From Escherichia phage vB_EcoP_PE006: a stretch of DNA of 64,000 bases. The position numbers and the translations under genes were made by a program. A model generated the notes under the pieces. It was not told the DNA's origin and made no database searches. It worked only from the letters and a program-made list of their open reading frames with translations. Positions within the stretch are counted from its first letter, which is position 1; each line of letters opens with the position of its first letter. Positions 50,224-54,108 of this stretch are shown in pieces. Location of the stretch: sequence record OQ938541.1. One strand, 5' to 3'.

Positions 50224-50880
50224 TTAACTCTCCAAAGTTTTCTTCAGAGCTGCCCACGAGATTGGGTAGAGTTTAGCCATCTCTTCATCCAGAGATTGAG
50301 CAAACACTCGAACTTCATACTGAGCATGGGAGGATAGTCGCTGACGACACAACTCAAACCAACCATACAAAGAACCAGTCCACACCCACTCCGTGATCAT
50401 TCCCTGAGGAAGAACAAATCGGGCTTGCTCTGGTGCAACGAATTCAATCAACTTGTCATATGCTGCTAGAGAAGCTTCATATGCATCGTTAATCAACATT
50501 AATGCTTCAGCTCGTTCTCCATTGATGAGTTGAACCCCTGAACCTGCATGGAGGTCCGAAGGTCTCGCAAAAATCTCTTTAGGGATGAAGACTTCAACTG
50601 CTCCATCTTTATACCGCCGGGACATTTCGTTCCACGAGAATCCAACCTGATGCTTGCCCAACTGTCTCGCAATTGCGATAGGTGCTTTGCATCGGAAACT
50701 GACTTGCGGGTGCCTGAAAGGCGTGACATGCTTCTCTCTCGCGAGGAAGTTGATGAGACGTTCATCACGTTCATTTAAATCACCTTCACGGGTTACGCCA
50801 AAGGAAACTCGAGCTGCGTTTACTACGCTACGATCACTTCCCATAGCTTCGATTAATGTTGCTTGTAATTGTTCATTCAT
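50224..50880 (-). CDS. ThyX-like flavin-dependent thymidylate synthase homolog (divergent signature)
   Basis: IARQLGKHQVGFSWNEMSRRY aligns with the ThyX signature region (..RHR..S.NE.S.RY) but has KHQ in place of RHR. Confidence 0.55.
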   Translation of the reverse strand: MNEQLQATLIEAMGSDRSVVNAARVSFGVTREGDLNERDERLINFLAREKHVTPFRHPQVSFRCKAPIAIARQLGKHQVGFSWNEMSRRYKDGAVEVFIPKEIFARPSDLHAGSGVQLINGERAEALMLINDAYEASLAAYDKLIEFVAPEQARFVLPQGMITEWVWTGSLYGWFELCRQRLSSHAQYEVRVFAQSLDEEMAKLYPISWAALKKTLES

Positions 50881-50895
50881 CCGTGAATTTCCTTA

Positions 50896-51105
50896 TTAAT
50901 ATTCTTTTACATAACAAACCACTAAGGTTCCCATTTCTGACAGTGTTGATTTATGTAAGCTTACTTTACTATAAATCTTTGGGGCCATCTTAAGAGCCTT
51001 CTTAAAACGGCGAGCATCTTTACGAGTAGCAAAGTGCTCTGTAACAGGTATAGCCGGGTCTTGGTAGAGGTAATATACCACCGTCCAATATTTTTTCATA
51101 ATCAA
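50896..51105 (-). CDS. small basic protein, member of a four-gene paralog family
   Basis: Shares KKxW...TR..AR..KK...SIHK...Y with 52959..53574. Confidence 0.45.
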   Translation of the reverse strand: MIMKKYWTVVYYLYQDPAIPVTEHFATRKDARRFKKALKMAPKIYSKVSLHKSTLSEMGTLVVCYVKEY

Positions 51106-51374
51106 ACACCTAGGGCAGTAGTTAAGAATGCTTTCAGGTTTGCTTCGGTCTGCATACCAGAGAGGCTGTAGTGTGTACCGCTGTTACGGTCAGGTACAAC
51201 GAAAGCAGGGATGCTACGAACCCCGTACTTAACAGCTTGTTCACGACCATCACCCTCAAGGATGTTAATCTCTTCCACTTCTACATCAAACTCCTTAACA
51301 ACCTTCTCAAAGGTAGGAGCCATTGCTTTACATGGAGCACACTGATCACTATAAAACTTAATTACTTTAGACAT
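51102..51374 (-). CDS. thioredoxin-like protein (start at internal Met of track ORF 51102..51428)
   Basis: CAPC redox motif and GVRSIPAFVV, resembling the thioredoxin CxxC and cis-Pro loop. Confidence 0.65.
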   Translation of the reverse strand: MSKVIKFYSDQCAPCKAMAPTFEKVVKEFDVEVEEINILEGDGREQAVKYGVRSIPAFVVPDRNSGTHYSLSGMQTEANLKAFLTTALGV

Positions 51375-51564
51375 TCTATTCCTTGTTAATAAACAGGTTG
51401 ATATGACGTTGGGTAGCAGGAACAACAATAAAAGATTTATACTGACCTTTTGCTAAGTCATGAGCAATCTTCTTTGTCTGACCAAGACCCATCACACAGC
51501 CACTAACAATAATGGCGTGTGCTTGCAACTCTTCAGGGAGTTTTAGTTTCATTCTTCAGGTTCC

Positions 51565-51750
51565 TTACAGCATAGCAAGAATGATAATAAGAGGTAATGT
51601 TATAGCGAAATTAATAAGAACAGCGCTGCCTAGCTTGATAGCTTTAACATCCTCTTCTGATGGGTTTTCTTTAATTGCTAAATTTCGAGCTTTATATATA
51701 ACAGTACCAATTATTAACGACCACACGGCCCACACAATCAGTGAAATCAT
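51565..51750 (-). CDS. small two-TM membrane protein (61 aa)
   Basis: Two hydrophobic segments around a charged loop; tandem paralog of 51760..51939. Confidence 0.45.
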   Translation of the reverse strand: MISLIVWAVWSLIIGTVIYKARNLAIKENPSEEDVKAIKLGSAVLINFAITLPLIIILAML

Positions 51751-51759
51751 ATCAAACCC

Positions 51760-51939
51760 TTATGCAGTCAGGAGGTGAAGCAGGAATGGGATAACAACAG
51801 CTACGACAACCATGATGGTTGATGCTGTTTGAATCTCACCTTTCTTGTCAGGAGTTTCTTCAATAAGCTTGCCAGAAGCCCAATAGATACCACCACCAAT
51901 AAAGACAGCCCAAATACCCCATACGATTGCTGATAACAT
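51760..51939 (-). CDS. small two-TM membrane protein (59 aa, below the track cut-off), paralog of 51565..51750
   Basis: Manual translation MLSAIVWGIWAVFIGGGIYWASGKLIEETPDKKGEIQTASTIMVVVAVVIPFLLHLLTA aligns with MISLIVWAVWSLIIGTVIYKARNLAIKENPSEEDVKAIKLGSAVLINFAITLPLIIILAML. Confidence 0.45.
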   Translation of the reverse strand: MLSAIVWGIWAVFIGGGIYWASGKLIEETPDKKGEIQTASTIMVVVAVVIPFLLHLLTA

Positions 51940-52000
51940 ATATCTATATCCTTATAAATAAGTTCGCCCCACCTCGGGTTAGGAGACAGGGCGGAGGTTT

Positions 52001-52564: not shown

Positions 52565-52886
52565 TTGGGTTATCTCCATCAAGTTCAACTGAATTAGCAA
52601 CGTTACGTTCGATGTTTGCCATCACTTGCTGCGTTATGACAATACAGTTCTGTGGGTCTACTGACTTAGAACGCCCCATTTCAGGGTCATACACCTTAAC
52701 TCGCTTAGCAGTTGAACCTGTAACCTGAAGAACCTTCAACAAATATCCCTGATTACCAATAGACCAAGCAACAACATCACGATTCTTGATAAAGCGACCA
52801 AGCATATCACGATGATAAAACTGTTGCATCACCTTGGATTTTGTAATCTCTTCAGTGGGCGGGGCCACTTTACTCAAATCTAACAT
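52557..52886 (-). CDS. hypothetical protein (109 aa)
   Basis: ORF with an upstream TAATGTATA-like motif. Confidence 0.45.
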   Translation of the reverse strand: MLDLSKVAPPTEEITKSKVMQQFYHRDMLGRFIKNRDVVAWSIGNQGYLLKVLQVTGSTAKRVKVYDPEMGRSKSVDPQNCIVITQQVMANIERNVANSVELDGDNPNA

Positions 52887-52925
52887 AACTCTCTCCTGTA
52901 AAATACAAATTCTTATTGTACTCTA

Positions 52926-52934
52926 TATACATTT
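52926..52934 (-). promoter_or_regulatory. AAATGTATA promoter-like motif (minus-strand sense, one mismatch)
   Basis: About 39 nt upstream of the ATG at 52886. Confidence 0.35.
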
Positions 52935-52958
52935 GAGAGTTACCATATCTACTACCAA

Positions 52959-53168
52959 TCAGTAGTAAACATTCCGAGATAGCATACAAGTACCTTCTGA
53001 GAATTCAATCCAACGATGTATGCTAACATGTTCAACTATACCGACCAGAGCTTTCATGTTCTTTTTAGCAATACGAGCCTCTTTGCGAGTGTTAAACAGT
53101 TTGATATTATCTTTACCTATGTGTTGTTCATGATTCCAAACAACACGAATAGCCCACATCTTTTTCAT
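52959..53168 (-). CDS. small basic protein, paralog family member
   Basis: MKKMWAIRV...NTRKEARIAKK...VSIHR...NVYY. Confidence 0.45.
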   Translation of the reverse strand: MKKMWAIRVVWNHEQHIGKDNIKLFNTRKEARIAKKNMKALVGIVEHVSIHRWIEFSEGTCMLSRNVYY

Positions 53169-53377
53169 CAGTAGTGTACCTTTCCGCTGATATAAACACG
53201 ACCAGAGGAATACTCCTTGGCCTTATGGATACTGATACTATTGACCACGTCACCAGTAAGCATGGTCTTTTTAAAATCCCGAGCTTGTTGGCGAGTAGGT
53301 AGTGCAGTCATAGTCATACCACCTGATGCCCACTTAATCTTTGCTAACCAAAACTGTCTCATAGTGATTGGCCTCAT
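53168..53377 (-). CDS. small basic protein, paralog family member
   Basis: ...PTRQQARDFKK...ISIHK...GKVHY; 1-nt overlap with neighbours. Confidence 0.45.
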   Translation of the reverse strand: MRPITMRQFWLAKIKWASGGMTMTALPTRQQARDFKKTMLTGDVVNSISIHKAKEYSSGRVYISGKVHY

Positions 53378-53574
53378 TAGTAATAAACCTTACTGTTGGC
53401 AATAAAAGCACCTTCGTTATTCACAATAGCTTTTCCTATTGTAAACTTGTTAAATCTAAAAGTAGACTTGTATTGATTTTTGACCCTACGTGCGTGATCT
53501 CGAGTCTTAACAAAATCTACAGACACTAAAACTCCAGTCTTTTTATCATATACACGAACAATCCACTTTTTCAT
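53377..53574 (-). CDS. small basic protein, paralog family member
   Basis: MKKWIVRV...KTRDHARRVK...SKVYY. Confidence 0.45.
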   Translation of the reverse strand: MKKWIVRVYDKKTGVLVSVDFVKTRDHARRVKNQYKSTFRFNKFTIGKAIVNNEGAFIANSKVYY

Positions 53575-54108
53575 TTACACACCTTTAGATGCAACTACAC
53601 CTTCAGAGTTATTATAACGACCCTTCACTGCATAGGAATGTTCCCCTGCATGAGAGTGCTCAAACATCACCATCTGACCAACACGCATACCAGCACGAAC
53701 TCGTAAGCTATGGTGCTTTGTTACGTTATGGAACTCAAATGTCAGCTTACTGCTGTTAAACCCTGCGTCTGCCCACCCGGCGTGGAGGTGGTTCAAACCG
53801 CAACGAGCCATAGATGAACGAAGAACAAACAGGCTTGAGATGTTATCTGGAAGATTAAACTCCTCCATGGAGTGAGCCAAGAAGAACTGACCCGGAGTGA
53901 TAACCAAACCCTCTTCAGGAATCTTTACTTCCTTCCACTGAAGATTTTCTTTCGCATCAATATCAACGATGCCATCAGCCTGTTCTTCAACAAGGATAGT
54001 ATCACCAATACGGATATCCACACTAGCAGCGTTAACATACTTATGCTCCGCATCCAGATAGCCATTGTCAATTACATCGTGCAGTTCAACACTTCCTAGT
54101 AAACTCAT
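53575..54108 (-). CDS. dcd: dCTP deaminase-like protein (dCTP deaminase/dUTPase superfamily)
   Basis: ASVDIRIGD...PGQFFLAHSMEEFNLP...LRSSMARCGLNHLHAGWADAGF matches the family's conserved blocks. Confidence 0.7.
   Translation of the reverse strand: MSLLGSVELHDVIDNGYLDAEHKYVNAASVDIRIGDTILVEEQADGIVDIDAKENLQWKEVKIPEEGLVITPGQFFLAHSMEEFNLPDNISSLFVLRSSMARCGLNHLHAGWADAGFNSSKLTFEFHNVTKHHSLRVRAGMRVGQMVMFEHSHAGEHSYAVKGRYNNSEGVVASKGV

Follow-up and report, generated by a model that had tools for sequence, protein, structure and literature searches.

The 64,000-nucleotide stretch of Escherichia phage vB_EcoP_PE006 analyzed here (sequence record OQ938541.1; hereafter the window) carries on its minus strand thyX, encoding a 218-aa flavin-dependent thymidylate synthase of the KHQ/SRRY subfamily (positions 50224 to 50880), and dcd, encoding a 177-aa dCTP deaminase of dUTPase-like fold that is possibly bifunctional and dUMP forming (53575 to 54108). 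Together, these genes very probably serve the ordinary supply of deoxythymidine triphosphate (dTTP). The window is from a Kuravirus (Gordonclarkvirinae, phiEco32-like podophages of E. coli), and the region spanning the two genes is 97% identical to that of Escherichia phage 172-1 and 92 to 96% identical to those of NJ01, WFI101126, MN05, and other Kuravirus genomes. Both are ordinary nucleotide-metabolism genes and their presence was already known, with annotations as ThyX and dCTP deaminase in phiEco32, 172-1, YF01, and other phages, presumably dating back to 2008 for the phiEco32-like group. They sit in a minus-strand block of replication and nucleotide-metabolism genes, and an AAGGA Shine-Dalgarno-like sequence, a plausible ribosome-binding site, precedes the ATG of each.

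From family membership, fold, residue conservation, distribution, and genomic context, we infer the following activities and flux. Dcd would convert dCTP to dUTP, or to dUMP and pyrophosphate if it is bifunctional; if it is monofunctional, host Dut would convert the dUTP to dUMP. ThyX would then convert dUMP to dTMP with methylene-tetrahydrofolate and reduced flavin, a gp1.7-like phage kinase would convert dTMP to dTDP, and host Ndk would complete the route to dTTP. The candidate for the kinase step is a predicted 177-aa deoxynucleoside monophosphate kinase (38697 to 39230, minus strand) that matched Pfam DUF3310 (E = 1.7e-07), PHROG 26149 ("deoxynucleoside monophosphate kinase"; 4.3e-84), and PHROG 236 ("nucleotide kinase"), and which, as a DUF3310 protein, we take to be T7 gp1.7-like. 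In this manner, surplus deoxycytidine nucleotides would be channelled to dTTP for replication of the AT-richer phage genome. The G+C content of the window is 39 to 45%, and that of the phage genome is 42%, compared with about 51% for the host; a G+C content lower than that of E. coli means that proportionally more dTTP and less dCTP is needed.

Fold and active site of the phage ThyX

The Pfam Thy1 profile (PF02511) covered the phage ThyX over its full length (E = 1.4e-43; 149.4 bits against a cut-off of 24.8; profile positions 1 to 190 of 191), and the score for the NCBIfam thyX equivalog TIGR02170 was 128.7 bits, above the cut-off of 87.9. An AlphaFold2 model, built from 25 diverse members of the subfamily, had a predicted local distance difference test (pLDDT) score of 93.7 and a predicted template modeling (pTM) score of 0.88. 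Using Foldseek against the PDB, it was found that the top 50 matches of this model were all entries of T. maritima ThyX, with E values of about 1e-17 and template modeling (TM) scores of 0.77 to 0.82. That the fold superposes on T. maritima ThyX and that the equivalog cut-offs are passed favor an ordinary role in thymidylate supply.

For residue-level comparison, the T. maritima sequence was rebuilt from the PDB alignment and its numbering checked, chain residues R90-H91-R92 corresponding to native R78-H79-R80. In the HMMER alignment to this enzyme (1kq4/1o26 series), the phage protein reads ARQLGKHQVGFSWNEMSRRY where T. maritima ThyX has ARQWFRHRIA-SYNELSGRY; phage K76-H77-Q78-X8-S87 is therefore paired with R78-H79-R80-X7-S88, with one residue added between the triplet and the Ser. 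The His, the Ser, and the spacing fit the literal signature RHR-X7-8-S, whereas both Arg residues are substituted, and we treat this signature as that of the characterized branch and not as a requirement for ThyX. In total, the residues listed as changed from T. maritima to the phage are R78 to K76, R80 to Q78, G89 to R88 (giving SRRY for SGRY), N163 to S170, R165 to Y172, and N169 to E176. The original prediction had reported KHQ in place of RHR and the one-residue insertion, both of which are borne out by this alignment and by the nearest relatives described below, but it had missed the changes at G89, R165, and N163.

To assess conservation across the subfamily, 1.84 billion representative sequences were searched exhaustively with HMMER, and 355 representatives were returned at an E value of ≤1e-30. 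Of those listed, the ones with fewer than 300 residues were aligned together with 12 of the closest clusters, giving an alignment of 137 sequences. In the characterized T. maritima and M. tuberculosis enzymes, dUMP is bound and activated by R74, Q75, E86, S88, R90, Y91, R147, and R174 (T. maritima numbering), and H53 stacks against the folate. Each of these eight dUMP residues is kept in at least 121 of the 137 representatives. In the phage protein itself, S30, H53, T55, R74, Q75, H79, N85, E86, S88, R90, Y91, R147, R174, and H178 are all conserved, as S26, H51, T53, R72, Q73, H77, N84, E85, S87, R89, Y90, R154, R181, and H185, respectively.

The changed residues lie elsewhere in the active site. 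The AMP phosphate and ribityl chain of flavin adenine dinucleotide (FAD), together with its flavin mononucleotide (FMN) phosphate, are hydrogen bonded by the RHR residues and by the Arg equivalent to T. maritima R165, and the first Arg of RHR also touches the isoalloxazine ring (PMC6514825). Of the flavin contacts in the phage ThyX, S26, T53, and H77 are kept, while R78 is replaced by Lys, R80 by Gln, and R165 by Tyr; the new R88 adjoins the Arg that binds the dUMP phosphate. Thus, as far as the alignment can tell, the differences are concentrated on the flavin-phosphate contacts and the substrate pocket is canonical. Had the substrate switched (to dCMP or UMP) or had nucleotide binding been lost, the dUMP-site residues should have changed, and their retention means that neither is supported; the pocket and reaction of the KHQ/SRRY enzymes are expected to be unchanged. 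The suggestion in the original prediction that KHQ may signal a different substrate or chemistry was consequently not upheld, as the dUMP and folate residues are conserved, the substitutions fall on FAD-phosphate contacts, and chromosomal thyX genes share the signature (see below).

A refinement of the ordinary reading, possible though doubtful, is that the same conversion of dUMP to dTMP takes place with the flavin bound differently, either more loosely, through K76 and R88, or as FMN instead of FAD. In its favor, both Arg residues that clamp the FAD pyrophosphate and AMP in characterized enzymes (T. maritima R80 and R165; contacts according to PMC6514825) are replaced, R80 by Gln and R165 by Tyr, Ala, Leu, Met, or Phe throughout the subfamily, and the change of G89 to Arg is near invariant (130 of 137 representatives). 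However, in T. thermophilus ThyX (6j61), positions 165 and 163 are already occupied by His and Asp, respectively, so the contacts at these two positions are not universal and vary even among canonical enzymes, and the phage ThyX keeps H79, T55, and S30.

Distribution of KHQ/SRRY ThyX in phages and bacteria

Of the 120 closest clusters at 90% identity, which extend down to 54% identity, 119 carry exactly KHQ with the same spacing, and for this reason the deviation from RHR is not attributable to chance or to sequencing error. Clusters near the phage ThyX include proteins of Salmonella phage SeKF_80, a Staphylococcus phage, and Escherichia phage Ecp_YSF. KHQ also outnumbers every other triplet in the 150 nearest representatives at 50% identity. 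Across the 137-sequence alignment, the first motif position is Lys in 112 sequences and Arg in 24, while the third (T. maritima position 80) is Gln in 82, Lys in 14, Thr in 14, and His, Val, or Glu in 17 (127 of 137 in all), with Arg falling outside the six commonest residues. The Arg after the conserved Ser, where T. maritima has Gly, accounts for the 130 representatives given above. Judged by these sequences, KHQ/SRRY is the hallmark of a large, widespread ThyX subfamily.

To survey phages, 50,697 phage records were searched with tblastn, and ThyX of this type was identified in Kuravirus, Moazamivirus (7-11), Chaseviridae, phages of Aeromonas, Vibrio, and Rheinheimera, and T7-like roseophages. 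In phages outside Kuravirus, KHQ-type thyX was seen in plain replication or nucleotide modules: with Dcd in 7-11, beside primase and polymerase genes in Chaseviridae, and with polymerase, MazG, ribonucleotide reductase, and PhoH genes in roseophage CRP-113. A separate scan of 185,579 prokaryotic species, one genome each, with the degenerate pattern K-H-x-x-G-x-x-W-N-E-x-S-R-R-Y yielded 45 thyX matches, all of them KHQ. Several of the 45 are on short contigs of metagenome-assembled genomes (MAGs) or are probable prophages, such as a Phenylobacterium copy beside a DUF1376 gene.

The KHQ clade is not strictly viral, as the matches on long contigs have housekeeping genes as neighbors. On the complete 1.79-Mb chromosome of a Spirochaetia MAG (OZ251568.1; thyX at 3001 to 3657 of locus L002), thyX lies between a short-chain dehydrogenase (SDR) gene and pyrD; beyond pyrD come pyrF/pyrE and pyrB, and upstream is a citrate synthase gene. 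The SDR-thyX-pyrD order recurs in a second Spirochaetaceae genome (5976 to 6632 of locus L043). KHQ-type thyX adjoins 2-oxoacid dehydrogenase genes in two Chloroflexota/Dehalococcoidia genomes and ispH and acrB in a Nitrospinota genome, and it lies among metabolic genes in a Poribacteria genome. These Spirochaetia, Chloroflexota, Nitrospinota, and Poribacteria genes occupy chromosomal housekeeping loci that are not prophages; their products share 41 to 46% identity with the phage protein and have the same K78, Q80, and R89 (T. maritima numbering). Synteny with pyrimidine biosynthesis is as expected for a cell's own thymidylate synthase, and the occurrence of housekeeping KHQ-type thyX beside pyr genes speaks against the motif change being a sign of altered chemistry.

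Two further groups of relatives were encountered. Four metagenomic ThyX relatives (P0122, P0137, P0186, and P0255) are interrupted by HNH-inteins inserted exactly between KHQVGF and S/C-WNE (...GNGFVVHN|SWNE...); inteins tend to occupy indispensable active-site segments. The ThyX homologue of Bacillus phage SP-15 (NC_031245.1; 4932 to 5768 of locus L050) has K-Y-R in place of RHR and an insertion of approximately 50 residues before NEASRRY, and its gene adjoins one of the deoxynucleoside kinase family. SP-15 is known for DNA containing 5-dihydroxypentyluracil, and its ThyX might be a real case of altered function.

The dCTP deaminase, restriction resistance, and proposed DNA modifications

The presence of a Dcd-like gene was confirmed by a full-length Pfam DCD match (PF22769; E = 3.5e-34) and by the dCTP deaminase equivalog TIGR02274 (107.7 bits against a cut-off of 92.8). 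Phage residues S98, R102, D114, and E125 align with S111, R115, D128, and E138 of E. coli Dcd, of which S111, R115, and E138 are catalytic. The best PDB sequence matches were 4xjc of B. halodurans (58.8 bits) and 2qxx of M. tuberculosis (55.5 bits), compared with 35.8 bits for E. coli Dcd. An "AGW/F-x-D-x-GF" segment is common to the phage protein, 4xjc, and 2qxx, whereas E. coli has "AHRIDPGW"; 4xjc is also 177 aa in length. Both 4xjc and 2qxx are presumably bifunctional dCTP deaminase:dUTPases, and the closeness to them suggests that the phage Dcd may likewise make dUMP directly, although the score of the M. jannaschii DCD-DUT is low (33.6 bits).

Some observations weigh against ordinary dTTP supply as the role of the pair. 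In M. tuberculosis ThyX, R95 and R97 were reportedly scored as essential by Ulmer et al. in 2008, and no assayed or solved KHQ/SRRY member was found among the PDB sequence matches or in the literature searched. Moreover, Gordonclarkvirinae have been reported to be unusually restriction resistant (PMC11990801). A lack of restriction sites was rejected as the cause of this resistance, as the window contains 8 EcoRI, 28 EcoRV, 12 EcoKI, and 101 EcoP1 sites. HindIII and DraI sites number 34 and 40, respectively. Other sites are scarce: CCWGG was observed 7 times against 74 expected and GATC 128 times against 238 to 311 expected, and 13 six-base palindromes (those of PstI, KpnI, SacI, and SphI among them) are absent from the window. 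Such strong avoidance of restriction sites argues against blanket DNA modification. Nucleoside analyses or usable restriction digests of Kuravirus DNA were not found in the literature searched.

It has been proposed by the BASEL authors that Dcd supplies dUTP and that thymidine is replaced by deoxyuridine (dU) in the DNA of these phages, a guess based on Dcd, the neighboring nucleotidyltransferase, and the restriction resistance (PMC11990801). DNA containing dU does resist enzymes that recognize T-containing sites (PMC12697855). In the BASEL text, thyX is nowhere mentioned (PMC11990801), and the conservation of a thyX with an intact dUMP site, alongside a deoxynucleoside monophosphate kinase in the same genomes, argues against the published suggestion and weighs against dU replacement as the means by which Gordonclarkvirinae escape restriction. 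In characterized dU-DNA phages, a Zn-dependent deaminase of CDA fold is accompanied by either a dTMP phosphatase or a dTTP pyrophosphatase (PMC12697855), whereas the phage Dcd has the dUTPase fold, and no NT5C, HD, or MazG-type hydrolase of dTMP or dTTP was recognized among the window open reading frames (ORFs) scanned. The combination seen in PBS1, PhiR1-37, and DSS3_VP1, in which a CDA-fold deaminase and a dTMP/dTTP hydrolase occur with no route to dTTP, is thus not that found here. In addition, the head motif of the nucleotidyltransferase points to RNA 3' ends and not to DNA, and the T-containing sites GATC and CCWGG are counterselected. We consider dU replacement exceedingly improbable.

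As for the hydrolase, the 132-aa ORF at 42860 to 43258 (minus strand) was considered as a HAD dTMP phosphatase, since it has a HAD-like DxDxT (GLDYDDTYT) and a later WIDDFP motif, but this assignment was unsupported, with no Pfam match at E values up to 10 and no PDB match using phmmer; the PHROGs that it matches are of unknown function. Phage 172-1 has a Nudix gene in roughly the same region, and a matching ORF was not found in the window between 41.5 and 44.6 kb.

A second alternative is that a ThyX with altered chemistry or substrate (for example, with 5-hydroxymethyl-dUMP as its product, or with dCMP or UMP as its substrate) feeds a noncanonical pyrimidine into phage DNA; the restriction resistance of Gordonclarkvirinae would then be accounted for. 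That resistance is otherwise unexplained, the ThyX homologue PolB provides a precedent for a changed substrate, and the genome contains an unexplained cluster of amidoligase, GATase, ATP-grasp, and gamma-glutamyl cyclotransferase genes. Amidoligase and glutaminotransferase genes have been found in some thymidine-hypermodification contigs (Lee et al. 2021; PMC8989533), where the route to hypermodified thymidine involves a ThyA-family dUMP hydroxymethylase, the P-loop kinase 5-HMUDK, and the transferase aGPT-Pplase. Using Pfam and PHROGs, we scanned most ORFs of at least 100 aa on the side of the replication genes, plus another ten large ORFs among the early and structural genes. In this set, which leaves aside numerous small ORFs and some 13 kb of the genome beyond the window, we found no ThyA-type dUMP hydroxymethylase, 5-HMUDK, or aGPT-Pplase, and no glycosyltransferase or methyltransferase. 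Furthermore, R181, Q73, E85, and Y90, which recognize uracil and deoxyribose, are unchanged in the phage ThyX, and bacterial housekeeping thyX genes beside pyr genes carry the same signature. The depletion of CCWGG, GATC, and palindromes implies that the DNA is exposed to restriction enzymes, and the termini of phiEco32 have been mapped by restriction profiling (PMC9965538). This alternative is, in our estimation, very unlikely.

Only a slender chance is likewise given to the broader proposal that the KHQ/SRRY ThyX is functionally different, through another flavin form or an escaped 5-methylene or 5-hydroxymethyl intermediate, and that in Gordonclarkvirinae, with Dcd and the lineage-specific nucleotidyltransferase, it contributes to an undiscovered DNA modification behind the restriction resistance. 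Taken together, all readings in which thyX and dcd feed a noncanonical base have a similarly slim probability. Of the two roles that the original prediction had left open for the pair, dTTP supply is therefore favored; the pathway to a modified pyrimidine is not, no known hypermodification gene having been recognized among the ORFs scanned.

The amidoligase cluster itself lies on the minus strand and comprises genes for a gamma-glutamyl cyclotransferase (58033 to 58452), a RimK-like ATP-grasp ligase (59154 to 60350), a GATase/GlmS-like protein (60794 to 62485), and an amidoligase (62904 to 63878). In phage 172-1, the cluster extends past the end of the window with a COOH-NH2 ligase.

Neighboring genes and comparison with known systems

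In descending coordinates, the minus-strand block runs from the primase-helicase gene (56023 to 57813) through the DNA polymerase exonuclease subunit, the nucleotidyltransferase, dcd, three small paralogous ORFs, a 109-aa ORF of unknown function, the Dps/ferritin-like protein, two tiny membrane ORFs, thioredoxin, and a fourth small paralogue to thyX, which is followed by a stand-alone NAD-ligase Ia domain and PhoH, with the DNA polymerase and nucleotide kinase farther on. The stop codon of the nucleotidyltransferase gene (451 aa; 54118 to 55473; PHROG 12715) lies 9 nucleotides before the start of dcd. Its head motif, GGAVRD...PHDIDIF, is of the class II CCA-adding/poly(A) polymerase type, with a weak Pfam PolyA_pol match (9e-4) below the cut-off, and its C-terminal half is long, variable, and probably disordered. 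Homologues were found in only 47 protein clusters, and those with a named source are all from Escherichia or Shigella phages or uncultured Caudoviricetes MAGs. A PDB sequence search gave no match, and the AlphaFold2 model was unusable (pLDDT of 41.5). Although the gene was flagged as a possible DNA-modification gene by the BASEL authors (PMC11990801), its motif suggests an RNA 3'-end enzyme instead, and it is probably outside the dTMP pathway.

The four paralogous ORFs, of 65 to 69 aa (50896 to 51105, 52959 to 53168, 53168 to 53377, and 53377 to 53574, all minus strand), belong to PHROG 4939, of unknown function. They share 23 to 34% identity and an invariant W...TR..AR..K...G...Y pattern, and three of them are in tandem directly downstream of dcd. 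Between dcd and thyX are also the Dps/ferritin-like protein (52001 to 52600, minus strand), annotated as a DNA-binding protein, and the thioredoxin (51102 to 51428, minus strand); as speculation, the latter may serve host ribonucleotide reductase or the processivity of a T7-like family A polymerase. The stand-alone 107-aa protein beyond thyX (49370 to 49693, minus strand) matches only the N-terminal NAD+-binding Ia domain of NAD-dependent DNA ligase (Pfam Nlig-Ia, 2.7e-35); related genomes label it "DNA ligase" despite its having no adenylation domain. A 55-aa acidic, Cys-rich ORF (CTKCG...CPCCGVCEYCC; 50090 to 50257, minus strand) has 34 nucleotides in common with the 3' end of thyX. A small ORF near thyX is labelled "anti-restriction nuclease" in the RefSeq record of 172-1, and the only PHROG match of the ORF at 50090 to 50257 is "membrane protein"; neither label is convincing.

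The occurrence of thyX with dcd fits a common viral strategy in which deoxynucleotide pools are adjusted to an AT-richer genome, and as a gene finding it matters little. Of wider use is that the textbook RHR motif misses a large branch of ThyX (K-H-Q...S-R-R-Y) present in many phage lineages and several bacterial phyla, a branch relevant to annotation and to work on ThyX inhibitors. The Spirochaetia thyX loci provide useful cellular representatives of it.

The ThyX enzymes of T. maritima (TM0449) and T. thermophilus (6j61) have the same fold as the phage protein (TM score of about 0.8) and 33 to 34% identity with it, and their dUMP, folate, and catalytic residues are shared by it. The phage protein differs from both in KHQ, X8, SRRY, Y172, S170, and E176, at the FAD-phosphate contacts. 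PolB (4p5a) of polyoxin biosynthesis, which we take to be a UMP methylase, belongs to the same family and demonstrates that ThyX-like enzymes can change substrate; however, it is far more distant (E = 1.3e-16, compared with 5e-31 for T. thermophilus ThyX), and the phage ThyX keeps Y90 and the dUMP-specific loop. The phage DUF3310 kinase probably has the same role as T7 gp1.7, converting dTMP and other deoxynucleoside monophosphates to the diphosphates. The same logic applies to the Chlorovirus PBCV-1, whose G+C content (40%) is also below that of the host (66%) and which is described as raising dTTP supply with a deoxycytidylate deaminase and ThyX (PMC10142491). There too, a deaminase of deoxycytidine nucleotides (dCMP/dCTP) is paired with a ThyX (A674R), although that deaminase is of the Zn-dependent CDA fold, unlike the dUTPase-like fold of the phage Dcd, and the two ThyX proteins are only distantly related (E = 3.7e-07).

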